Shown here: positions 7,512-64,000 of the stretch, piece after piece
Layout of the letters: every line of letters starts with the position of its first letter
Position numbering within the stretch: the first letter of the stretch is position 1
Origin: Escherichia phage vB_EcoM_G2285
Sequence record: MK327933.1
Direction: 5' to 3' (one strand)
Length of the DNA stretch: 64,000 nt
The notes under the pieces: model-generated
The model's input: the letters and a program-made list of their open reading frames with translations, nothing else
Databases searched by the model: none
What the model was told of the DNA's origin: nothing
Made by a program: the position numbers and the translations under genes

Positions 7512-8036
7512 TCATTTTAGCAAAATAAAATCAACTTGTTCAGCCAATGAACGTCTAAACATTAATTGACAACTTCCGAGGATGAAATCAGGTGCTTCAT
7601 AGACCGCGATGTAGTATCCTTTAGCTTTCAAGAGTTCAACATCCACCTGGTCATCAAACCATGCATAAACCGCGTCAACACTTTCAAATCCAAAATAGAA
7701 CCCTTGAGCCCAATCTTCGTTCAATTCAAATGTGTGCTCAATTCTATAGTATCTTAAGATATTTTGTTCAAGGAGTTTGTCTTCATTTACTGTAGGACGA
7801 TTAGGGACATTATAGTTGTCGCCGTGATGGTAGAAGTTACCTGAGATTATTCCATGTTTATCAAGGAACTCCCATGTTTCTTCAGAGTTGTCGGTGCCCG
7901 ACCAACCGTATGGCGAGCGAGGTTCTTTATTCCAAGAGGTTTCCCAAATTCTGACGGCTTTACCGTCTTCAATAGCAATTCCTGGTAATGATTCACGTTG
8001 AGTACAAAAACTACGTTCTACGCGGTAAACTAACAT
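7512..8036 (-). CDS. hypothetical protein
   Basis: 174 aa ORF with SD GAGGAGAA upstream. Confidence 0.5.
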   Translation of the reverse strand: MLVYRVERSFCTQRESLPGIAIEDGKAVRIWETSWNKEPRSPYGWSGTDNSEETWEFLDKHGIISGNFYHHGDNYNVPNRPTVNEDKLLEQNILRYYRIEHTFELNEDWAQGFYFGFESVDAVYAWFDDQVDVELLKAKGYYIAVYEAPDFILGSCQLMFRRSLAEQVDFILLK

Positions 8037-8062
8037 ATTATTCTCCTCTGGTTGATATGGTT

Positions 8063-8091
8063 ATAATATCAAAACCAGAGGAAAAGTAAAC
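8063..8091 (-). promoter_or_regulatory. early-type promoter (-35 GTTTAC, 17 bp, -10 TATTAT) inside palindrome
   Basis: minus GTTTAC-N17-TATTAT; arms CCTCTGGTT/AACCAGAGG flank the -10. Confidence 0.5.
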
Positions 8092-18419: not shown

Positions 18420-18448
18420 TTTAACTCCTTAGTTGATTTGATAGGACT

Positions 18449-18478
18449 ACTATACTATAGTCCATCTATAATGTAAAC
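18449..18478 (-). promoter_or_regulatory. early-type promoter (-35 GTTTAC, -10 TATAGT in palindrome GGACTA..TAGTCC)
   Basis: minus GTTTAC-N18-TATAGT then CAAATCAACTAAGGAGTTAAAATG. Confidence 0.5.
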
Positions 18479-19232: not shown

Positions 19233-19421
19233 TTATCGAAAATCTGCTTCGAAAACTTTCTCGTCATTAATAAATGCTTTAACTAATGCATTGTTCACTT
19301 CAGCAAGTTGTACCGTAACCCACTCGATTTCTTCGCGATCACCTGATAACATGATATCTTTAGTGAACATCTCACCGCTTTTAAACCAACCGATAAAAGT
19401 AACTTTAGTTAATTTGCTCAT
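19233..19421 (-). CDS. dmd: Dmd antitoxin (discriminator of mRNA degradation)
   Basis: MSKLTKVTFIGWFK..MFTKDI..YAEVNNALVKAFINDEKV matches recalled T4 Dmd; start set at internal ATG. Confidence 0.82.
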   Translation of the reverse strand: MSKLTKVTFIGWFKSGEMFTKDIMLSGDREEIEWVTVQLAEVNNALVKAFINDEKVFEADFR

Positions 19422-19735
19422 ATTTCCTCGCAAAATGCCCATTCAGCATGATAAACTGTAGCGCCTTTAGTATTATTCATTTGAACTACGTCTACCGGAG
19501 AAATTACTCGATAGAGACGTGGTTCACCTCCATAAGAGCGTGCTGCTCGTCCTGCATAAATCTTTGCTAAACCGATATCTTCAGTAAAGAATACACGATC
19601 CAAGTTTTTCTTACGTCCAGTTTCAGACAGAACTCCTGTTTCTTCAGGAGGACAAAGCATGTTTTCGATGTTAGCTGAACTACTTGAACCGTGATAAAAA
19701 ATCTTAAATTCTGCTTTACAATCGATGGTTTTCAT
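19418..19735 (-). CDS. Arr-like ADP-ribosyltransferase-fold protein (candidate)
   Basis: 105 aa; FYHGSSS.. (HG[ST] motif), VFFTED, YRVISP blocks align to recalled Arr rifampin ADP-ribosyltransferase. Confidence 0.45.
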   Translation of the reverse strand: MKTIDCKAEFKIFYHGSSSSANIENMLCPPEETGVLSETGRKKNLDRVFFTEDIGLAKIYAGRAARSYGGEPRLYRVISPVDVVQMNNTKGATVYHAEWAFCEEI

Positions 19736-19761
19736 TTTGTTCTCCAGTAGTTGATAGGTCT

Positions 19762-19790
19762 ATAATAACACAACTACTGGAGAAGTAAAC
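19762..19790 (-). promoter_or_regulatory. early-type promoter embedded in 14-bp-arm palindrome (arms 19740-19753 / 19771-19784)
   Basis: minus GTTTAC-N17-TATTAT; downstream arm CAACTACTGGAGAA contains the SD. Confidence 0.55.
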
Positions 19791-20165
19791 TTAAAAATGT
19801 AATTTAGATATATCTGCGTTGATTTCGTTTTGGTTTGCGTCATATGCAATTAAACGAACCGCTTTAGATGGGTCATTCAATGCATAGAAATGATGGAACA
19901 TTGCTCGAACGATATCACCATTTACGAGTTCTACCTGGATAGGAGAACCTTTTTCGAGTTGGAAATGTTCATAAGCTTTGATGGTTCGTAGATAATCAAG
20001 TTTTTGATTTCCAGCTCCAACTATTTGTACGATACGTTTGCCTGTGTTTTCCATACGAGATACAATAGATTTAGGAGCAAGAATAACGTAGGTTGCCAGC
20101 GGAGAAACTACTTCAACAGTTGTGTTTTCGGTGATTGCAGTAAAAATTGCTTGAGACATATTCAT
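19791..20165 (-). CDS. hypothetical protein
   Basis: 124 aa ORF between gp41 and dmd, not in the T4 backbone as recalled. Confidence 0.5.
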   Translation of the reverse strand: MNMSQAIFTAITENTTVEVVSPLATYVILAPKSIVSRMENTGKRIVQIVGAGNQKLDYLRTIKAYEHFQLEKGSPIQVELVNGDIVRAMFHHFYALNDPSKAVRLIAYDANQNEINADISKLHF

Positions 20166-20194
20166 AATGTTTTCCTCTTGGTTGGTGTAAGTAC

Positions 20195-20224
20195 ATCATA
20201 TCATGCCTAGAGGAAGATGTAAAC
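20195..20224 (-). promoter_or_regulatory. early-type promoter (-35 GTTTAC, 18 bp, -10 TATGAT)
   Basis: minus GTTTAC-N18-TATGAT then CAACCAAGAGGAAAACATTATG. Confidence 0.4.
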
Positions 20225-29901: not shown

Positions 29902-30905
29902 TCAAAAATCGAACATATCGAACAGAGATGCTTTCTTCTCGTAATCGAGTTTCGCTGCTGATGTGAATCCTTCAAGTGGTTTAATAAATGTCTTCTCAAG
30001 GAGAACAGTGTAGTCCATCCAATGAAGTACATCGTCTTTAATTAAATCTGTGATTTCAGTACCAGAAGGCCATGCGATACATTTATCACCGAATGGGTTT
30101 CCTTCACGTAAAGGCAGAACATATACTTTTTCACCTTCTACAACTTGCGGTGCATCGATATTACCTTTGATAGCCCGGTTATACGTCAGAATTCCACGAA
30201 TATGGAACGGGCATTTAGGACCAGGGAATCCACCGACGTCATATTTAGCAATGTTATTCGCAGAAGATACCGACGCGATGCTAATATAATTCAATTGACG
30301 GAATTCTTTTTCAAACTCTTTAAAATATTCTTGTAATGATTCTTCGCCTTCCTGAAGCATACGACGAATACATTCCTTAAGAGCTTTCTGTACTGCTTTA
30401 GGAGTCGAAGATTTCTGAGTCTCTAGACCCATGATTTTAAGCTTAGGTTCAGCGTATCTGGTTCCTTCCATATCCCACACGTTTAATGCATAACGTTTCT
30501 TACCAGTCCAGAATCCACCAATACCTTTAGAACCAAGCGGAGGACCAGCAATAGCTTCTCGGTCCATGAACATCAAATGTTGTTTATTGTTCATGTATTC
30601 ACACATTTCACGGAAACCTCTATCAATAGCTGGTTCCATACGTTCACGTGCAAACTTATCTAAGAAGTCTACCCAATGGTTGGTATCACGGAATTTAGAT
30701 TCACCAACCTTATCAATAATTTTATCTGCAGATACGTAAATGGAGTCTGTATCACCATAAAGAACGAAAGCTTCACCTTCTGTACCACAAACTTCATTCA
30801 GATATTCATTAACTTTACGTTCAATCCACTGTAAAGCCATTTGACCAAATGTTGTGATTGCAGTAGCATTACGCAAATCGTAATAACGGAACCAAACGTT
30901 ACCCA
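29902..30905 (-). CDS. 43: DNA polymerase gp43, cistron B exon 2 (palm/thumb, YGDTDS)
   Basis: translation from GNVWFRYYDLRNATAIT through YGDTDS to ..FDMFDF matches recalled RB69/T4 gp43 C-terminus; 5' boundary set at inferred splice site. Confidence 0.85.
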
Positions 30906-31137
30906 CATTATGTTCGACTGAGGTCGTTAATCTCAGCCCGGAATTATATCCAGCTGCATGTCGCCATGCAGAGCAGACTATATCATCATCTTTATAGATG
31001 CTATGCGCTTCCACCCACTTGGGCGTACTCCTTTCGGATAGTCGTTGCACGTTCCTCATAGAGGCTTCGCTCAGGATTGTCTACTAGAGATGTCCCCTGA
31101 ATTCACATAGTTTAAAGTGCGCCGAGTTATTTGGTTA
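30906..31137 (-). ncRNA. group I intron (td/nrdD-like, ORF-less, 232 nt) in gene 43
   Basis: interrupts motif B codons (..LYGAL | GNVWF..); core elements CTCTAGTAGACAATCC and GATATAGTCTGCTCTGCATGGCGACATGCAGC; starts TAA after exon U, ends ..CATAATG. Confidence 0.75.
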
Positions 31138-31306
31138 ACGCACCATACAGACTATTAATAAGCAATTTACGGTTAATCTGAGCCGTATTACCTGCTACTT
31201 CAGCCAATTCGCAGTTTTTAAGATGTTGTTCTAAATCAGCTTTGCTTAAGGACTTGAGATAAGAAATTTCATCTTGTGAAAAGTCTTGAGTGTATGTTAA
31301 ATTCAT
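31138..31306 (-). CDS. 43: DNA polymerase gp43, cistron B exon 1 (motif B)
   Basis: ATG overlapping HEG stop (TAATG); encodes MNLTYTQDF..NTAQINRKLLINSLYGA, the polymerase K-x3-NSxYG region. Confidence 0.7.
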
Positions 31307-32127
31307 TATATTTTATTCCTACAGTTATCAAAGTGCCAACGTTTCATACCAGATAATATACCTTCTTTACCACAGTGCGGACACGTTGCTTTAATCTCTT
31401 TAGCTTTAGCCCAGTATTCTTTCTTAGAGTCTGAAAGGGCCTTATTATGGGCTTCCGAATTGGTTTTGCCTAATCTTGTTTTAACTATATTAGGATTCTC
31501 TGAAATTCTTTGCTTCATCCTAGAAGACTGTTTAGAACGTTGTTCTTTCGACCAGCCATCAGATAAAACTTTCTTTTGTTCTTCAGTTTTGGTTGTACCG
31601 AAGAGATGGGATTTATTTTTAGAATAGTATTCTTTGAGACCTATAGATTGTTTTAACGAAGTTTCAGCAGAATGCTTTGTTCCTATTTTATTTTTACTTG
31701 CTACAGCCCAATTGGCTGCTGCTATGGCTTTATACTTTTCAGGATTTTTGGCTATAGTGATTTTAATAGAATCTGAAACCTTTTTAGCAATCTCTTGGGA
31801 CTTCATAGGATTTGGTAGATTTAAAGAATTTACATAATCCCAACCGCCTTTACCACCAGGATTAAGATTATATGTATCATTTCTTTTTACAAAATCTTTA
31901 TCTACAATTTTAGCTTCAAGGGCATAAGCTTCATCTTCATTATCGAATACTTCCAAAATGGTCTTTTGGAGATTTTCTATACCGTATTTTTCAACGGCTG
32001 CTTTAACAACAGGTCCAGAACCGCGGTAAATATCGTTTTGATTAGACTCATCACACTTATGAACACCTACATAAATTTTACCATTAACGACATTAGTAAT
32101 TTGGTAAACAGTATAAACAGTTTTCAT
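31306..32127 (-). CDS. GIY-YIG homing endonuclease inserted within gene 43
   Basis: VYQITNVVNGKIYVGV GIY-YIG motif; C-terminal CPHCG..MKRWHFDNC zinc finger; start set at ATG with SD GGAGG. Confidence 0.75.
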   Translation of the reverse strand: MKTVYTVYQITNVVNGKIYVGVHKCDESNQNDIYRGSGPVVKAAVEKYGIENLQKTILEVFDNEDEAYALEAKIVDKDFVKRNDTYNLNPGGKGGWDYVNSLNLPNPMKSQEIAKKVSDSIKITIAKNPEKYKAIAAANWAVASKNKIGTKHSAETSLKQSIGLKEYYSKNKSHLFGTTKTEEQKKVLSDGWSKEQRSKQSSRMKQRISENPNIVKTRLGKTNSEAHNKALSDSKKEYWAKAKEIKATCPHCGKEGILSGMKRWHFDNCRNKI

Positions 32128-32153: not shown

Positions 32154-32183
32154 ATAATACCACATCCTTGTGGTATTGTAAAC
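32154..32183 (-). promoter_or_regulatory. early-type promoter for the intragenic endonuclease
   Basis: minus GTTTAC-N18-TATTAT then AGTCTTATCAACTAATGGAGGATATTATG. Confidence 0.45.
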
Positions 32184-33703
32184 TATTTTGAAGCCAAAAT
32201 CTCTTTAATTATTTCAGCATTTCGCTGTGCAGCCAACATGTAGCGCTTATGTTCTTTACGCTGCAAGAATACCTTAGTGATTTCTGTTGGAATCACACCA
32301 TCACGGTCTTTATAATACATCATGCCGTTAGGAGAGCAACTGTACACATCTGAAGGACGTTCGGCGATTGCGTTAATATACTCATGCAGTGGAGCTACTT
32401 TAAACGTTCCTGCTATTGTTTCCGGGCTAATATTCACTTGGCGAATAATACTTGGATACAGAGATGTAAGGTCGAAACTCATTACATATTTGTATCGATT
32501 TGGAATAGGTTCCTTAACAAAAGCGCCAGGATAAGGTTGAACCGGGTGAGAACGACCTTGTGGAATCACCTTGTTCTGCTCTTTAAGGCTATTAAAAATA
32601 ATAGCATCCCATGTTTTAATTGGGCTAAACACAGATTGAATCTGTATCTTAGCATAATAACCCATGTCCAAGCTCAAGTTGATGAACTGACGCTTAGCAT
32701 CAATTTGCAATACACGATACACGTCGATAATGTTATAAGAAATATATCGTTGGTGATTGCTTTCACGAAGCTTAGAAATAGGGCCGTCATATTTCAGTTT
32801 ACCAACGTTCAATTCAAATTCTGAAATGTAATCCAGAGAATATGACGGTTGATTGGTAAAAGAGAATTTTTTGTAAAGGTCAATGTAATCAAGAACAGAG
32901 ATACCGAACAATGTAATGATTTCACGAGAACCATACATGTTTTCGATAACTTTAACACGAGTTTTACGATGTGGTGACAACCGTTTTGCTGTGGATTCGC
33001 CAAAAATATTCTTGATTCGGTTATACACATATGGAATATCAAATGACTCAACGTTCCATCCAGTCAAAATGACAGGAGTTTTCTGTTGCCAGAAGTTGAG
33101 ATATTCCATCAACAATTCTTTTTCGTTATCGAACGGCATATAAATGATTTTATCGATAATTTCAGATGGAACTTCATCACCGCCTTGTTCTTGAAGCTTA
33201 GCAGCGATTTCAATAGACCATTCTTCTACATTACCATACGGAGAATTCAATAGATCAAATACATAGAACCTGTCGTCAATTGAGTCATAATGGGTGATAG
33301 CATCAATCGGATGTTTTGCTTGTGACGGCTCAGGGAACCCATCCGGAGATGTTACTTCGATGTCGAAGTTAGCCACACGAATTTTTGTATGGTCGTATTT
33401 GATTTCATAGTTATAAGTGTCAGACAAATACGCCAATTTGAAATCGTCCATGCCAAGTGCTTCAAGTCCGATATCTTCCATGCGTTTAATCCATTGGGAG
33501 GCATCACGCATATTAGCGAACAGCTTACGAGTACACGGCTTACCGTAGATATCGAAATATTTCGTAGCCTGACTTTCTGGACAATGAGCAAACAGTGATG
33601 GTTTATATTCTACTTCACGAGTACGTTCACGGCCATTAGAATCGATGTAACGTTCAAAAATTGAATCACCAATCTGTTCAACCGTTAAGTAAAATTCTTT
33701 CAT
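32183..33703 (-). CDS. 43: DNA polymerase gp43, cistron A (N-terminal and 3'-5' exonuclease domains, motif A)
   Basis: 506 aa; MKEFYLTVEQIGDSIFERYID..FDIEV..YNIIDV..DLTSLYPSII matches recalled RB69 gp43 N-terminal half; ends at in-frame stop. Confidence 0.9.
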   Translation of the reverse strand: MKEFYLTVEQIGDSIFERYIDSNGRERTREVEYKPSLFAHCPESQATKYFDIYGKPCTRKLFANMRDASQWIKRMEDIGLEALGMDDFKLAYLSDTYNYEIKYDHTKIRVANFDIEVTSPDGFPEPSQAKHPIDAITHYDSIDDRFYVFDLLNSPYGNVEEWSIEIAAKLQEQGGDEVPSEIIDKIIYMPFDNEKELLMEYLNFWQQKTPVILTGWNVESFDIPYVYNRIKNIFGESTAKRLSPHRKTRVKVIENMYGSREIITLFGISVLDYIDLYKKFSFTNQPSYSLDYISEFELNVGKLKYDGPISKLRESNHQRYISYNIIDVYRVLQIDAKRQFINLSLDMGYYAKIQIQSVFSPIKTWDAIIFNSLKEQNKVIPQGRSHPVQPYPGAFVKEPIPNRYKYVMSFDLTSLYPSIIRQVNISPETIAGTFKVAPLHEYINAIAERPSDVYSCSPNGMMYYKDRDGVIPTEITKVFLQRKEHKRYMLAAQRNAEIIKEILASK

Positions 33704-38034: not shown

Positions 38035-38751
38035 ATGAATTATAACTCAATATACGAAAAGCTTATCACCAATGCTAAATCAAGAAGTTTAGATGGTTAT
38101 ACAGAACGTCATCACATTATACCACAATGTTTAGGTGGAAGTGATGATGCTTTAAACTTAGTAGACTTAACACCGGAAGAACATTATTTGGCACATCAAC
38201 TGTTGGTAAAAATCCATCCAGATAATGCCTCTTTAATATATGCTGCTCGTATGATGACTATCTCATCTCCTAAAGCAGATAGAAGCAAAAACAAATTATT
38301 TGGATGGCTTCGACGTAAGAATCAAGAAGTTCAAAAGAACAAAGAATTCACTGCTGAAACTCGTAAGAAAATGTCCGAGTCGGCAAAAAATAAACCAAAG
38401 ATTACATGTCCACACTGCGGTTTAACCGGCACTGAAGGAAACATGAGACGTTGGCATTTTGATAACTGTAAACAAGGCCCTACGCCTAAAATAGTAAAAC
38501 TTGATCAAGAAACAAAGGATAAAATAATTAAAACCATGGCCACGAAAATTTGGAAAGAAGATTCTTGCCCGTTTTGTGGCTTAACTACTAAGTTATCGGC
38601 GTTAAAGCCGCATATAAAATTCTGTAAATCAAATCCTAACAGAAAGAAAAAAGAGGACAAGAAAATTAAATGTCCTCATTGCGATAAAATAGGGATCCCT
38701 GCTAATATGCGTCGTTGGCATTTTGATAACTGTAAACATAAGCCTCATTAA
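38035..38751 (+). CDS. HNH homing endonuclease (Mob-like) with three zinc-finger repeats
   Basis: ERHHIIPQCLGGSDDALNLVDLTPEEHYLAH HNH motif; three CPHCG/CPFCG..MRRWHFDNCK repeats; plus strand among minus genes. Confidence 0.8.
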   Translation: MNYNSIYEKLITNAKSRSLDGYTERHHIIPQCLGGSDDALNLVDLTPEEHYLAHQLLVKIHPDNASLIYAARMMTISSPKADRSKNKLFGWLRRKNQEVQKNKEFTAETRKKMSESAKNKPKITCPHCGLTGTEGNMRRWHFDNCKQGPTPKIVKLDQETKDKIIKTMATKIWKEDSCPFCGLTTKLSALKPHIKFCKSNPNRKKKEDKKIKCPHCDKIGIPANMRRWHFDNCKHKPH

Positions 38752-48528: not shown

Positions 48529-48739
48529 CAAGATGACTGCTGCATGTCGCCATGCAGATTAGACTATATCTTCATCTTTCGATGCCGGCCGTTTCGAATA
48601 GCATTAGCTTCTATTCTACACCGCTACATTCATCACGGTTAGTCGTTAGGCATTTAGTTCAAAAGAACATTTAGCACGGGATTGTCTACTAGAGAGGTTC
48701 CCCGTTTAGACCGGTTTTACATGAGCCTGAATTAAATTA

Positions 48740-54408: not shown

Positions 54409-54435
54409 GTTTTACCTCCAGTAGTTGATAGGTCT

Positions 54436-54464
54436 ATAATAACATAACCATAGACCTTGTAAAC
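54436..54464 (-). promoter_or_regulatory. early-type promoter (-35 GTTTAC, 17 bp, -10 TATTAT)
   Basis: minus GTTTAC-N17-TATTAT-AGACCTATCAACTACTGGAGG. Confidence 0.5.
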
Positions 54465-54466
54465 AA

Positions 54467-54754
54467 CTAAAAGAAACTTTTTTCGGTATTTTTTCCACTG
54501 AACCAAACAGACTTCGGGATTTTTTGTAATTTTTCAGATTTAAGTTTCTCTTCCTGTTCTTTCTTATATACACCCTTGTCGTACTGGAGCATCTCTATGG
54601 CATTCTTTTGCAAACGATCTAAGGTAATTAAGGCTTTAGTTTTTCCTTTCAAGGAAGAGTCCTGGCGAACCTCCTCGCTATATTGCATCGTAGAACTAAC
54701 CATACGATGAGCATAGAGTTCGACTGCGGCTTTAATTTTTTGCATAAAATCCAT
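54467..54754 (-). CDS. hypothetical small protein
   Basis: 95 aa ORF. Confidence 0.4.
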   Translation of the reverse strand: MDFMQKIKAAVELYAHRMVSSTMQYSEEVRQDSSLKGKTKALITLDRLQKNAIEMLQYDKGVYKKEQEEKLKSEKLQKIPKSVWFSGKNTEKSFF

Positions 54755-55911: not shown

Positions 55912-55940
55912 ATAGTATCATATCCTAAAAGCATGTACAC
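55912..55940 (-). promoter_or_regulatory. early-type promoter (-35 TGTACA, 17 bp, -10 TACTAT)
   Basis: minus TGTACA-N17-TACTAT-AGACCTATC. Confidence 0.45.
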
Positions 55941-58467: not shown

Positions 58468-58602
58468 TTTACCATACTCGCTTCAATAAGATTCATTACA
58501 CCATTTACCATGTTATAGGTAAACATCGGATAATTGTATTGTACTACAACATAAGCGATAAGCAAAAGTTTCATTTTGTTCTCCATTTGTTTTGGTAGGA
58601 CT

Positions 58603-58632
58603 ACTATAACATAATCCTACCAAGTTGTAAAC
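58603..58632 (-). promoter_or_regulatory. early-type promoter (-35 GTTTAC, -10 TATAGT in palindrome TTGGTAGGA..TCCTACCAA)
   Basis: minus GTTTAC-N18-TATAGT. Confidence 0.45.
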
Positions 58633-58865
58633 TACCGATTGTGTTTTAAATGTTGATAAAGTTCTTCAACTTGTTTAGGGTCCAAAACAATTAAGTCATT
58701 TTCTTGACGAAGATAAATCCATCCCTTATCCCCAGGGCCATTTTTACAAAACATCACCACCATATCATCATCTTCAGCGCTTTCAGGTAAAAGTTCAAGT
58801 ACACCGTCTTCAGATTTTCCAGTATAATCGTAAAGCATAATATCCTCACATAATCTCGTTAACAT
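58632..58865 (-). CDS. hypothetical small protein
   Basis: 77 aa ORF. Confidence 0.45.
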   Translation of the reverse strand: MLTRLCEDIMLYDYTGKSEDGVLELLPESAEDDDMVVMFCKNGPGDKGWIYLRQENDLIVLDPKQVEELYQHLKHNR

Positions 58866-59025
58866 ACATTTGCAATTCGGTGTGGGCTTCGGCCATCTTT
58901 TTCATAGCTCTGTTAATGTCGATGTCTCCATCTTCGCAACCATGAGCATTTTCCCAATCAGATACCGCATTAGCGTACTCTTCAATCAAAAACATCAACT
59001 TAGAAATTTTTTCTTTACGTGACAT
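58846..59025 (-). CDS. hypothetical small protein
   Basis: start set at ATG after SD AGAGGAGAA. Confidence 0.4.
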   Translation of the reverse strand: MSRKEKISKLMFLIEEYANAVSDWENAHGCEDGDIDINRAMKKMAEAHTELQMYVNEIM

Positions 59026-59052
59026 AACGTTCTCCTCTAGTAAGTAAGGTTT

Positions 59053-59081
59053 ACTATAACACAACCTGAGGAGAAGTAAAC
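59053..59081 (-). promoter_or_regulatory. early-type promoter (-35 GTTTAC, 17 bp, -10 TATAGT)
   Basis: minus GTTTAC-N17-TATAGT then ..CTAGAGGAGAACGTTATG. Confidence 0.45.
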
Positions 59082-61803: not shown

Positions 61804-62262
61804 CTAGATTTTAATCACTGCTTTAGAAGCTTTTCCTGGTAGTCGTTTACTGTTAATAATAGCCATTCTACATTGAAGAGTCTTCATTTTGAATGCTGGA
61901 TTTTCGCGACAAACTGTAAGTCCTAACCAAAGATTTCCATCAGTTATTTCTAAACGGCCCGGGCGATATTCGACACCTTCGACAAAATCTTCATCAACAT
62001 CTGGACGTGCCGGCATTGATAAAAATTCTGCAACTTCTTTAACATGATTTTTTACTTTATGAAATAATTCAAAAACGTAATTCTCATCTATTTCTCTCTG
62101 GATGGCACGATCTAAGAGATGTTGAGAATACTTGATATGAAAGCCTGGTAGTCCAAGAGACTTTGCAGCATCTTTTATACCGGCATTTATTTTGCGGAAC
62201 TCCGTTTCAAAGATTCGACGGAGTTTATTACGGCGGATAAAAACGTCTGAATTGATAGTCAT
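61804..62262 (-). CDS. regB: RegB site-specific endoribonuclease
   Basis: MTINSDVFIRRNKLRR..YSQHLLDRAIQREIDE..GVEYRPGRLEITDGNLWLG matches recalled T4 RegB. Confidence 0.92.
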   Translation of the reverse strand: MTINSDVFIRRNKLRRIFETEFRKINAGIKDAAKSLGLPGFHIKYSQHLLDRAIQREIDENYVFELFHKVKNHVKEVAEFLSMPARPDVDEDFVEGVEYRPGRLEITDGNLWLGLTVCRENPAFKMKTLQCRMAIINSKRLPGKASKAVIKI

Positions 62263-62290
62263 TTTGATTTCTCCTCTAGTTGACAGGTCT

Positions 62291-62319
62291 ATAGTAACAC
62301 AACTAGAGGAGAAGTAAAC
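62291..62319 (-). promoter_or_regulatory. early-type promoter embedded in 12-bp-arm palindrome (arms 62271-62282 / 62300-62311)
   Basis: minus GTTTAC-N17-TACTAT; downstream arm CAACTAGAGGAG contains the SD. Confidence 0.55.
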
Positions 62320-62323
62320 TACT

Positions 62324-62581
62324 TTATTGATAAAATGGAGTTAAAGCCCAAGATTCTTTAGATACCATATTGGCGAAATGCCTCATCTCTTCGATTTGGC
62401 GACGACGCTGGTCAGCATAGTCTTCTTCGCCTTCTTCCTTACAATCTTCAAGGTCTTCTTCAAGATACTTTAAGTATTCACTACAAATTTTGTTGACCTT
62501 TTCTTGAAAGTCCAATAACCCAGTAATAGTAGAAGCCATTAGTATTTTTCCTCGGGTCGAAATACCGCACGACATGCCCAC
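62324..62581 (-). CDS. hypothetical small protein
   Basis: 85 aa ORF. Confidence 0.4.
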   Translation of the reverse strand: MGMSCGISTRGKILMASTITGLLDFQEKVNKICSEYLKYLEEDLEDCKEEGEEDYADQRRRQIEEMRHFANMVSKESWALTPFYQ

Positions 62582-62973
62582 ATGCTGGCTTCTTTTAGAT
62601 GTTGCTTAGCATACTTAAGAGCCTGCACTGCATCCATATCTTCTTTGGTTTGTTGCTCTGTTTCATTTTCTTTCAAGATATATGCTTCTTCAATCAGAGC
62701 ATCAAACAACAATCCAAGACGGACTTCAGCATCTTTAATAGCGTTCACTTTACCGATTTTATCATCGGTATGCGGCTTGTAGCCTTTGATGTCTTCAATC
62801 GACATAAGGAATTTCCTCATCTGTGGCAAGGTCATATTCGACCAATTGGATAGGCTCATTAATACCATATCCACGTACAGTGATATCAGTTGTCGGATAG
62901 TTTCCAGTAATATCACCCGTTCTAAATGCTTCAATGAATGATTGCTCGCCTGAGCAACTAAACCAGGCGGCAA
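62539..62973 (-). CDS. hypothetical protein (true start probably internal)
   Basis: 144 aa track ORF overlaps neighbours at both ends. Confidence 0.35.
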   Translation of the reverse strand: MPPGLVAQASNHSLKHLERVILLETIRQLISLYVDMVLMSLSNWSNMTLPQMRKFLMSIEDIKGYKPHTDDKIGKVNAIKDAEVRLGLLFDALIEEAYILKENETEQQTKEDMDAVQALKYAKQHLKEASMWACRAVFRPEEKY

Positions 62974-63019
62974 AACATTTTAAAACATCTTCAGACCCTT
63001 CTATAATCAATTTAGCCAT
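62795..63019 (-). CDS. hypothetical small protein
   Basis: 74 aa ORF. Confidence 0.4.
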   Translation of the reverse strand: MAKLIIEGSEDVLKCFAAWFSCSGEQSFIEAFRTGDITGNYPTTDITVRGYGINEPIQLVEYDLATDEEIPYVD

Positions 63020-63381
63020 TATAGACTTTCAGTAAAGGTACGAGCGATAACGTCGCGCTGCTGTTCCGGAGTCAGAGAGTTAAAGCGAACTGCATAACCA
63101 GATACACGGATGGTCAGCTGCGGATATTTTTCCGGATGCTTAACTGCATCTTCCAGAGTTTCACGACGCAGAACGTTAACGTTCAGATGTTGACCACCTT
63201 CAATTTTAACTTTAGGTTGATGTTCAATTTCAATTTCACGGGCATTCAAACCGTAGAAAATTTCCGGGTCTACAATAGCGTCTTCTTTAAAAGTCTTAGA
63301 GACAATAATCCGGGCTTGAGTACCGTCTTCAAAATAAATAGTGCCTTTATGTGCACCTTCAAGAATTTGATATGCTTTCAT
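63019..63381 (-). CDS. GrcA/YfiD-like autonomous glycyl radical cofactor
   Basis: 120 aa; C-terminal [60 protein letters not shown] with RVSGY glycyl-radical motif. Confidence 0.7.
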
Positions 63382-63387
63382 ATAACC

Positions 63388-63696
63388 TCAATTAGAAAAT
63401 AAATTTATCCAAGTTTTTTCTTTAATCAAAAATGGGTCGGAATTAAACGCCATTAAACTTTGAGTGATTAATCCCTTAAATGGCCCATCAATAAATTCCA
63501 TTTTGAAATGCGGAATACTAGTCATCAACCGTGCATTAGGAGCAGTACAAAGAACCTGCTGCCCTGCGAACGGACCTTTAGTCAAACGATATCGTTTAGG
63601 TTTAAAATGGTAAATCTCATAATTTTCTACAAGAGCCCTTTTATTGCATACTGGGCTGTTATAACAATACTCAAAAACTTCAATAGTGGTCATCAT
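63388..63696 (-). CDS. hypothetical protein
   Basis: start set at ATG overlapping upstream stop. Confidence 0.4.
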   Translation of the reverse strand: MMTTIEVFEYCYNSPVCNKRALVENYEIYHFKPKRYRLTKGPFAGQQVLCTAPNARLMTSIPHFKMEFIDGPFKGLITQSLMAFNSDPFLIKEKTWINLFSN

Positions 63697-64000
63697 TGCA
63701 TTCCAATCACAAAAAATTGAGGACGAGCAATACCGCCGATGCAATATTTGCTTTTGCAGCAGTGCTGTACTGATTTAATATGGACATTGTAAATCTTATC
63801 CATATCAGGAGCTTTAATAGGCTCGTCAATTATATACAGAATACGAGAAAGCGTTAATCCACGGAATTTAGAACCTTCATTGCCAATAAAACTACGAACA
63901 GAATCAGTAAATAAACGGAATCGAATATCATCGCTAGAATAACGAGAAAATTCTTTTTTAATGTTGCCAACAGAAATTTTAGCATAAGCTGAAGTATTAG
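63693..64000 (-). CDS. hypothetical protein, partial (N-terminus beyond window end)
   Basis: open frame running to the window edge, ending ..FFVIGMQ at TGA 63693-63695. Confidence 0.4.
   Translation of the reverse strand, partial: NTSAYAKISVGNIKKEFSRYSSDDIRFRLFTDSVRSFIGNEGSKFRGLTLSRILYIIDEPIKAPDMDKIYNVHIKSVQHCCKSKYCIGGIARPQFFVIGMQ

Follow-up and report, generated by a model that had tools for sequence, protein, structure and literature searches.

The locus

In the DNA of Escherichia phage vB_EcoM_G2285 (sequence record MK327933.1), of which a stretch of 64,000 nucleotides was analysed and is called the window throughout, an intergenic site on the minus strand (19740-19790) combines an early-type promoter, a palindrome bracketing the -10 hexamer and a Shine-Dalgarno (SD) sequence held in the downstream arm of that palindrome. 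The question raised by this locus is whether the gene that follows can be translated from any RNA crossing the site or only from RNA started at its own promoter. The answer reached here, which is modelled from folding and comparison and which we rate somewhat above an even chance, is that an anti-SD segment encoded in the promoter spacer would make translation depend on promoter choice in a subset of T4-type early cassettes.

Read on the minus strand, the site runs ...TAA GTTTAC TTCTCCAGTAGTTG TGT TATTAT agacctat CAACTACTGGAGAA caaa ATG and lies between two open reading frames (ORFs). Its parts and neighbours are as follows.

19791..20165, minus: upstream ORF of 124 amino acids (aa), with its own early promoter at 20224-20195
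19785..19790, minus: -35 hexamer GTTTAC, adjoining the stop codon TAA (19791-19793) of the 124-aa ORF
19771..19784, minus: 5' arm TTCTCCAGTAGTTG (anti-SD), the first 14 nt of the 17-nt spacer between -35 and -10
19762..19767, minus: -10 hexamer TATTAT, in the hairpin loop
19740..19753, minus: 3' arm CAACTACTGGAGAA, with the SD core GGAG at 19745-19742
19418..19735, minus: downstream ORF of 105 aa, phrog_2110, function unknown

The 5' arm is followed directly by TGT, an extended -10 of the TGn type, and an A/T-rich, UP-like stretch (atatatctaaattacatttttaa) lies upstream of the promoter; the A/T-rich flanks of other modules are similar. From canonical sigma-70 spacing, transcription of this module (the 19790 module below) is predicted to start at about 19755 (A, the seventh nucleotide past the -10), 2 nt before the 3' arm. 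The segment GGAGAACAAAA (19745-19735) matches the consensus GGAGRAYARAA of the RegB/S1 site exactly. On the model set out below, translation of the 105-aa ORF is predicted to depend on the local promoter.

Promoter modules and palindromes in the window

The strict motif GTTTAC-N16-18-TATWRT was matched 10 times in the window, always on the minus strand, against 0.34 +/- 0.54 matches expected from shuffled sequence. When the -10 was relaxed to TAnnnT and an SD and ATG were required, about 19-21 modules were obtained, in most of which the distance from the -10 to the ATG is nearly fixed at 26-29 nt; variants of the -35 of the form GTGTAC(A) occur at 55940, 12181, 52822 and 7512. An earlier note on this DNA had proposed a minus-strand promoter followed by an SD and ATG at a dozen or more sites, and the two counts bear this out; the element ATCAAC, which it had placed past the -10, does occur there, but in only about seven of the roughly 19-21 modules. 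The palindromes found at the modules are listed here, upstream arm first.

19784-19771 / 19753-19740, minus: 14 bp, perfect
62313-62300 / 62282-62269, minus: 14 bp, perfect
8082-8073 / 8053-8044, minus: 10 bp, perfect, or 13 bp with one G.U pair
58623-58615 / 58600-58592, minus: 9 bp
18463-18458 / 18449-18444, minus: 6 bp, perfect (GGACTA/TAGTCC)
59075-59068 / 59037-59030, minus: 8 bp, including the SD, absent from the earlier note
54457-54450 / 54437-54430, minus: 8 bp, absent from the earlier note
44243-44236 / 44227-44220, minus: 8 bp, absent from the earlier note
32177-32169 / 32164-32156, minus: 9 bp, inside the spacer, absent from the earlier note

The palindromes bracketing the -10 are genuine and far exceed what chance would give. 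Of 19 modules, 8 have a perfect inverted repeat of at least 8 bp, 5 have one of at least 9 bp and 2 have one of 14 bp; the corresponding shares of random 62-nt windows are 3.1%, 1.1% and 0.06%. Among the perfect repeats of 9-14 bp that had been reported before, those of the modules at 19790, 62319, 8091 and 58632 stand, but the one at 18478 has only 6 perfect bp; the palindrome previously placed at 62271-62311 exists, with coordinates that were 2 nt short at each end. The SD had been said to lie within the downstream arm at 19790 and 62319, where it was indeed found, and it does so additionally at 8091 and 59081. Dispersed repeat families, D1-D5, of 39-64 nt are also present in the window in 4-7 copies each.

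Stem classes and predicted folding

The stems were sorted into class A, in which the 3' arm contains the SD, class B, in which the arms hug the -10 and the SD is free, and class C, in which the hairpin lies within the spacer. Class A comprises the modules at 19790, 62319, 8091 and 59081 and, weakly, those at 20224, 13114 and 45205; class B those at 58632, 54464, 44256 and 18478; and class C those at 32183 and 9040. The modules whose parts are needed below, other than 19790, are these.

62269..62319, minus: class A, promoter module of regB; -35 62319-62314; 5' arm TTCTCCTCTAGTTG 62313-62300; -10 TACTAT 62296-62291; 3' arm CAACTAGAGGAGAA 62282-62269; ATG 62262
8041..8091, minus: class A, upstream of a 174-aa ORF (7512-8036, phrog_1106); -35 8091-8086; 5' arm 8085-8073; -10 8068-8063; 3' arm with SD 8053-8041
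59030..59081, minus: class A, upstream of a 59-aa ORF (58846-59025); 5' arm TTCTCCTC 59075-59068; 3' arm GAGGAGAA 59037-59030; preceded by a terminator-like hairpin
20172..20224, minus: weak class A, 7-bp arms TTCCTCT/AGAGGAA with a 30-nt loop; preceded by a terminator-like hairpin
58592..58632, minus: class B, 9-bp arms TTGGTAGGA/TCCTACCAA around the -10, SD free
54430..54464, minus: class B, 8-bp arms AGGTCTAT/ATAGACCT
18444..18478, minus: class B, upstream of sp, 6 bp perfect

In class A modules the -10 lies within the loop and is separated from the 3' arm by 8-9 nt. This geometry places a canonical start site inside the loop, and the local RNA is therefore predicted to lack the 5' arm. Folding was compared between a read-through RNA beginning 60 nt upstream of the -35 and a local RNA beginning 7 nt after the -10. 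At 62319, 59081, 19790 and 8091 the probability that the SD is unpaired was 0.00 on the read-through RNA and 0.61-0.75 on the local RNA, so that in this comparison, which the earlier note had suggested as a check, the SD is fully paired on the one and mostly free on the other at four class A modules. The RegB/S1 site of the 19790 module is single-stranded only on the promoter-proximal RNA in the same folding; exact matches to its consensus also occur at 58632 and 55940, and near matches at regB and 8091. No switch was predicted by folding at the 20224 module.

In class B the 3' arm is formed by the first ~10 nt past the -10 and ends 15-22 nt before the ATG, and folding gave the same SD accessibility on read-through and local RNA. 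Class B stems equal class A stems in frequency; they covary, include G.U pairs on the sense strand and are followed by A-rich sequence. A stem of this type is also present at the T4-type dmd promoter (L054:11427). Their role might be stabilisation of a 3' end after cleavage by RegB or RNase E, or occlusion of a standby site. The segments 54416-54479 and 19742-19805 have a common leader (AGACCTATCAACTACTGGAG) and different spacers, the spacer at 54464 pairing with AGACCT (class B) and that at 19790 with CAACTACTGGAGAA (class A); in T4, by contrast, the orthologue of the gene at 54464 has a class A stem (CTGTTCCTC/GAGGAACAG, L102:19162).

The regB and denV hairpins across lineages

The promoter of T4 regB has its orthologue in the 62319 module, which stands upstream of regB with the same geometry.

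61804..62262, minus: regB, RegB endoribonuclease, 152 aa; phrog_1323, E 1.5e-75; 77% identity to the T4-type orthologue

A set of 14 lineage representatives, T4 included, was assembled for this gene, and an SD-sequestering hairpin of -15.7 to -22.4 kcal/mol was obtained by folding in 12 of the 14. The stem is kept with differing arms (CTAGTTG/CAACTAG in this phage, and elsewhere CTTTATG/CATAAAG, TGTAAG/CTTACA, TTTTAGT/ACTAAAA, TGTAG/CTACA and ATTTG/CAAAT); the T4 arms, TTTTCCTCTTGACTG/CAGTTAAGAGGAGAA, form 15 bp with two G.U pairs. The SD core itself tracks its partner, as GGAGA/TCTCC, GAGGA/TCCTC or GGAGG/CCTCC. A plain MAFFT alignment left the regB stems out of register, and a permutation of duplex energies and a register-fitted ungapped alignment were used instead. 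The mean duplex energy was -16.7 kcal/mol for cognate against -10.3 kcal/mol for non-cognate pairs of spacer and leader, the cognate leader was the best partner for 10 of the 14 spacers, and the observed sum was reached in 0 of 100,000 permutations. Across 17 regB modules placed in the register-fitted alignment, pairing was seen in 77% of cells against 54% in shuffles, a control that is free of the fitting bias affecting slid controls. All 15 pairs in this alignment show double changes, and the covariation score was 0.604 against 0.236, with a value as high in 0 of 500 shuffles.

The gene denV lies just outside the window (the T4 hairpin locus at ~65355-65420 of AF158101, L158; others at L099:6117, L105:7329 and L108:7659). 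In 13 denV lineages, T4 included, an SD-sequestering promoter hairpin was found in at least seven arm designs, that of T4 being TCTCCTGTAG/CTACAGGAGA. The duplex energy was -14.5 kcal/mol for cognate and -9.7 kcal/mol for non-cognate pairs, and the observed sum again appeared in 0 of 100,000 permutations. In some denV lineages the 5' arm consists of the end of the -10 and the discriminator, and in every case it lies upstream of the predicted start. The common denominator of regB and denV, as judged from the predicted starts, is thus a 5' arm that is outside the local transcript, and the covariation argues that the pairing in both genes is under selection.

The T4 regB promoter is a typical early promoter (PMC3014915). 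In the published view, synthesis of RegB in T4 must be tightly limited, the early promoter being off by 2-3 min and the regB mRNA being cut by its own product at its SD (PMC1702504, PMC3014915), and translation of regB tied to its promoter would fit this published need for a tight limit. The paper PMC9409239 contains nothing on the structure of the regB leader. The 19790 module seems to be recently related to the regB-type module: they are 73% identical over 64 nt, and two differences in the arms are exactly compensated.

Family-wide survey and the strand of pairing

The survey covered ~1.3 Mb of T4-like early regions from IMG/VR, around gene 41 and regB, and together the window and loci L053-L114 yielded 251 unique modules. 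Complementarity of at least 8 bp between cognate spacer and leader was found in 15% of 191 unique modules from about 1 Mb of these regions, against 1.3% for non-cognate pairs and 0.4% for shuffled spacers; at a threshold of at least 10 bp the proportions were 8.9% and 0.19%. Of the spacers, 26.7% have an anti-SD tetramer, placed 1-4 nt past the -35, compared with 6.8% of random 17-mers. Classes A and B both recur in other genera with unrelated arm sequences.

Internal mismatches within the stems comprised 14 G.U and 1 A.C, where non-cognate pairs gave 357:293 (P = 0.0017); at least 10 gene families contributed G.U cases. This asymmetry indicates pairing in the sense-strand RNA rather than in a DNA cruciform or an antisense RNA.

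Terminators and read-through

The stems have A-rich tails: none of 27 in class A, and 2 of 37 in class B, are followed by a T-rich tail (at least 5 T in the next 8 nt), and consensus scans for terminators called none at the module stems. The reading of the stems as intrinsic (Rho-independent) terminators was rejected on these two grounds, the missing U-tract and the negative scans. By the search criteria used, none of the 64 modules with an embedded stem of at least 7 bp has an intrinsic terminator in the 60 nt upstream of it, against 33 of 187 stemless modules (P = 5e-5), a distribution that fits embedded stems and terminators being interchangeable ways of handling incoming transcription.

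Between the 20224 promoter and the 19790 module (434 nt) no terminator was detected, which makes the 124-aa ORF a likely source of read-through RNA at the flagged site. A MotA-box site resembling PuvsX (23921-23897) lies farther upstream of this module; sites patterned like middle promoters with a MotA box (TGCTT-N13-15-TAnnnT) number 37 in the window against 12 expected, most of them on the minus strand. In T4, the stop codon of vs.3 precedes the -35 of regB by 2 nt, and a MotA-dependent middle promoter, Pvs.7 (start 64382), is present upstream of regB in the same orientation. The MotA-box scan returned none on the minus strand within 62320-64000; a counterpart of T4 Pvs.7 would be expected at the edge of the window or past it.

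Proposed mechanism and alternatives

In the proposed mechanism a subset of T4-type early (host sigma-70) cassettes would carry an anti-SD arm in the spacer between -35 and -10 or, in some denV lineages, in the -10 and discriminator. Polymerase arriving from an upstream promoter would copy both arms, and the resulting hairpin of 10-15 bp (about -16 to -22 kcal/mol) would bury the SD together with the single-stranded RegB/S1 site, leaving the downstream gene on the read-through RNA neither translated nor cut. Polymerase engaged locally would start in the loop, ~2 nt before the 3' arm, and would make an RNA without the 5' arm, on which the SD would consequently be free and accessible to both ribosomes and RegB. 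For genes such as regB, denV and small early ORFs, the 105-aa ORF included, translation would then come from RNA of their own early promoter only, and their expression would be restricted to the first minutes of infection independently of the position of the cassette. The scheme, which the earlier note had put forward for the first two palindromes, is supported computationally at each step open to such a check: the anatomy, the predicted folding switch, the covariation, the sense-strand G.U bias, the lack of terminator tails and the mutual exclusion with upstream terminators. In this scheme we infer the start sites, the existence and amount of the read-through RNA and the effects on translation and RegB cleavage.

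A wider form of this proposal, to which we give a little less than an even chance, is that T-even-type phages, T4 among them, share a promoter-embedded anti-SD as a conserved, family-wide feature. Only RNA started at their own promoter would allow translation of a set of immediate-early genes (regB, denV and several small ORFs), and these would fall silent after the early shut-off despite middle-mode or read-through RNA, which would be shielded from RegB; the element would thereby act as a timer and as a context insulator for mobile cassettes.

Several observations limit the proposed mechanism or weigh against it. The SD is in an arm at only 4 of ~20 modules of the window, and the palindromes at 58594 and 18444 leave it free. 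Class B stems, equally frequent and with a free SD, indicate that SD masking is not the sole reason for promoter-embedded stems. Sequestration of the SD (P < 0.02) was predicted in 20.7% of the 251 modules against ~10% with random or shuffled heads, and swapping promoters between modules gave the same sequestered fraction (cognate 0.30, swapped 0.31) because the anti-SD motifs are generic; swapped heads are for this purpose uninformative as a null, and random genomic heads and shuffled spacers were used instead. The strong effect is limited to roughly 10% of modules. The modules at 59081 and 20224 have both an anti-SD and an upstream terminator-like hairpin (recognised by eye and missed by the search criteria). 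At the flagged site itself the promoter ahead of 19790, that at 20224, is also early, which makes the timing rationale weak there. In orthologues of the 105-aa ORF (85-89% identity) the anti-SD amounts to just 5-6 bp, and a terminator lies upstream in place of the long stem; only the closest relatives have the 14-bp stem of 19740-19784, which, on this distribution, is young.

An alternative that we consider unlikely as the primary explanation is RNA protection, in which the hairpin would hide the RegB/S1 site so that polycistronic RNA stays uncut and the loss of translation would be a side effect; in class B, the hairpin would stabilise the 3' end of the upstream cistron once cleavage had occurred. 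The site is an 11-nt single-stranded sequence, GGAGRAYARAA, and secondary structure protects it from RegB (PMC1702504, PMC3014915); the SD region at 19790 matches it exactly and other modules closely, and class B stems, which are unable to mask the SD, lie just 5' of such sites. A masked SD would, however, block 30S binding with or without RegB, and denV, the site of which is reported to be a poor RegB substrate (PMC1702504), nevertheless keeps its stem. Protection and translational masking are compatible with each other.

The stems may also be read as those of PeSL (promoter-early stem-loop) cassettes were first interpreted, that is, as attenuating or terminating incoming transcription, either directly or through Rho polarity on an untranslated ORF, with the cassette serving as a recombination site for ORF shuffling. 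One PeSL stem lowered lacZ expression as much as rrnB T1 (PMC2839356). The 4-7 dispersed copies of a 42-64 nt module in the window, the varying gene context of the 105-aa ORF among relatives and the mutual exclusion of embedded stems and upstream terminators are all in keeping with this account. Attenuation is nevertheless hard to reconcile with the missing U-tract and with the absence of any called terminator at the stems, and recombination would need identity between copies rather than intramolecular pairing and would leave the covariation, the G.U bias and the frequent presence of the SD in the 3' arm unexplained. We therefore regard it as improbable.

Translational coupling, in which a ribosome ending at the upstream stop would melt the base of the stem and the downstream ORF would need upstream translation, is suggested by the position of the stop codons at 19790, 62319 and 8091 and at regB of T4, L107 and L110, which precede the -35 by 0-4 nt and the 5' arm by 6-10 nt. 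By the geometry of the ribosome footprint, a terminating ribosome covers only a few nucleotides beyond the stop and would open at most 1-2 bp of a 14-bp stem; with the long untranslated gaps upstream of 59081 and of several denV modules, this makes coupling very unlikely. Least credible, at the margin of what need be considered, is a purely DNA-level or neutral origin (a cruciform or protein site at the -10, or a product of quasi-palindrome correction, without RNA function), which would suit the perfect arms of several modules and the templated correction of quasi-palindromes well documented in T4, but is opposed by arm sequences that vary between promoters and so offer no common protein site, by the 14:1 sense-strand G.U bias that neither a cruciform nor neutral correction predicts, and by the persistence of the regB and denV stem across many lineages while its arms turn over. 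A common protein operator and a DNA cruciform were both rejected on the differing arms and the G.U to A.C asymmetry.

Relation to known systems

Promoter-dependent translation of this kind has a precedent in T4, where the SD or AUG of e, soc, 49, I-TevI and other homing-endonuclease genes lies in a hairpin on RNA started upstream and the proximal promoter lies inside the structure; for e, soc, 49 and I-TevI this control is experimentally established (PMC3014915, PMC2988022). All genes known to be under such hairpin control are late genes according to the review PMC2988022, and the T4 reviews consulted name only late genes for it. The modules described here resemble them in that the SD is paired on read-through RNA and freed on local RNA, here as a prediction accompanied by covariation. 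They differ in that the late genes use gp55 promoters (TATAAATA), whereas here the promoter is an early sigma-70 promoter of the GTTTAC/TATAAT type and the genes are early; the 5' arm lies inside the spacer between -35 and -10, and translation would be confined to the earliest period rather than delayed.

A consensus for T4 early promoters and ribosome-binding sites (RBSs) was reportedly drawn up by Liebig and Ruger in 1989. The T4 early consensus consists of GTTTAC, a spacer of 17-18 nt, TGn, a TATAAT-like -10, 'additional regions of consensus' and a close RBS (PMC2988021). The modules are that consensus, the flagged site reading GTTTAC-N17 (ending in TGT)-TATTAT. The earlier note had connected them neither with this consensus nor with PeSL cassettes, and had not linked their GGAG and A-rich tail to RegB/S1 cleavage. 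In the consensus view the spacer and leader are signals for polymerase or ribosome, whereas here they are complementary to each other. This complementarity is unmentioned in the T4 reviews consulted, and the regB or denV hairpin may have been noticed elsewhere.

As described in PMC2839356, PeSL cassettes are ~60-100 nt long and consist of an AT-rich upstream part, a strong sigma-70-like early promoter, a stem-loop, an SD and an ATG; the stems of RB49 and phi1 lie between -35 and -10 or overlap the -10 and are read there as terminators and recombination sites, and those of PST and T4 are drawn upstream of the promoter. The modules share with PeSLs (Arbiol et al. 2010; Comeau et al. 2014) an intergenic cassette of promoter, stem, SD and ATG, dispersed copies and variable ORFs. 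Unlike PeSL stems as interpreted, namely as terminators or attenuators and recombination substrates, the present stems have no terminator tails, and the available portions of the PeSL literature do not describe SD sequestration, SD covariation or dependence on promoter choice.

The SD and A-rich tail of the modules match the RegB/S1 target, GGAGRAYARAA; that target is defined as a single-stranded sequence, whereas the hairpin would switch it off on read-through RNA. A similar arrangement protects bacterial transposase genes from external promoters: in IS10/Tn10, transcripts from outside carry a segment that pairs with the transposase RBS, and the element's own promoter starts downstream of it. 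Stem-loops of IS200 are mentioned in PMC3196728. IS10 and IS200 differ from the present modules in being bacterial mobile elements, in being single instances of unrelated sequence and in having no developmental time course or tie to RegB. What appears to be novel is the combination of an early sigma-70 promoter, a 5' arm in the spacer, the early targets regB and denV, and covarying conservation across T-even-type genera.

Genomic context and other features of the window

On its minus strand, which carries the early genes, the window has the same gene order as the first 64 kb of T4 (rIIA ... dda ... sp, dmd, 41, 40, uvsX ... regB). A 4-kb query around the flagged site is 98.7% identical to Shigella phage JK36 and Escherichia virus vB_Eco_mar005P1, which belong, like the phage of the window, to the T4-type genus Mosigvirus, family Straboviridae. 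The flagged site is downstream of gene 41; the 124-aa and 105-aa ORFs on either side of it are hypothetical and both absent from T4, and their surroundings differ from T4 and from other relatives.

Rfam at its gathering threshold returned no family at the module sites and, as its sole match in the window, a complete group I intron (RF00028, 83.6 bits, 30954-31170, minus), which lies between the apparent halves (506 aa and 385 aa) of DNA polymerase gene 43. A homing-endonuclease ORF (phrog_314) is located just upstream of the intron and has its own early-promoter-like module at 32183, the spacer of which holds the 9-bp hairpin AATACCACA/TGTGGTATT. The ORFs around the intron are the following.

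32183-33703: ORF
31306-32127: ORF
29902-31059: ORF

A 41-nt direct repeat of 93% identity (30953-30993 and 48539-48579) places a further copy of the intron's 3' end at about 48.5 kb, where it is possibly part of a second intron scoring below the Rfam gathering threshold. A 77-nt direct repeat of 74% identity (38398-38474 and 38662-38738, plus) lies within the ORF 38035-38751 of the plus strand and suggests that a Cys/His-rich segment was duplicated internally.

Implications

The confinement of T4 immediate-early proteins to the first minutes of infection is only partly understood: RegB accounts for only some of the inactivation of mRNA (PMC2988021), and further, unknown strategies must stop transcription from early promoters (Hinton 2010, PMC2988021). 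If translation does depend on promoter choice as proposed, the promoter spacer could serve in synthetic biology as a translational insulator against read-through, and the PeSL stems would gain a testable RNA function distinct from termination or recombination. For the phage, RegB, DenV and other early proteins would follow the activity of their own promoters automatically, and the silence of regB on middle-mode read-through RNA would be explained. The modules would then be an early-gene mirror image of the classic hairpin control of late genes.

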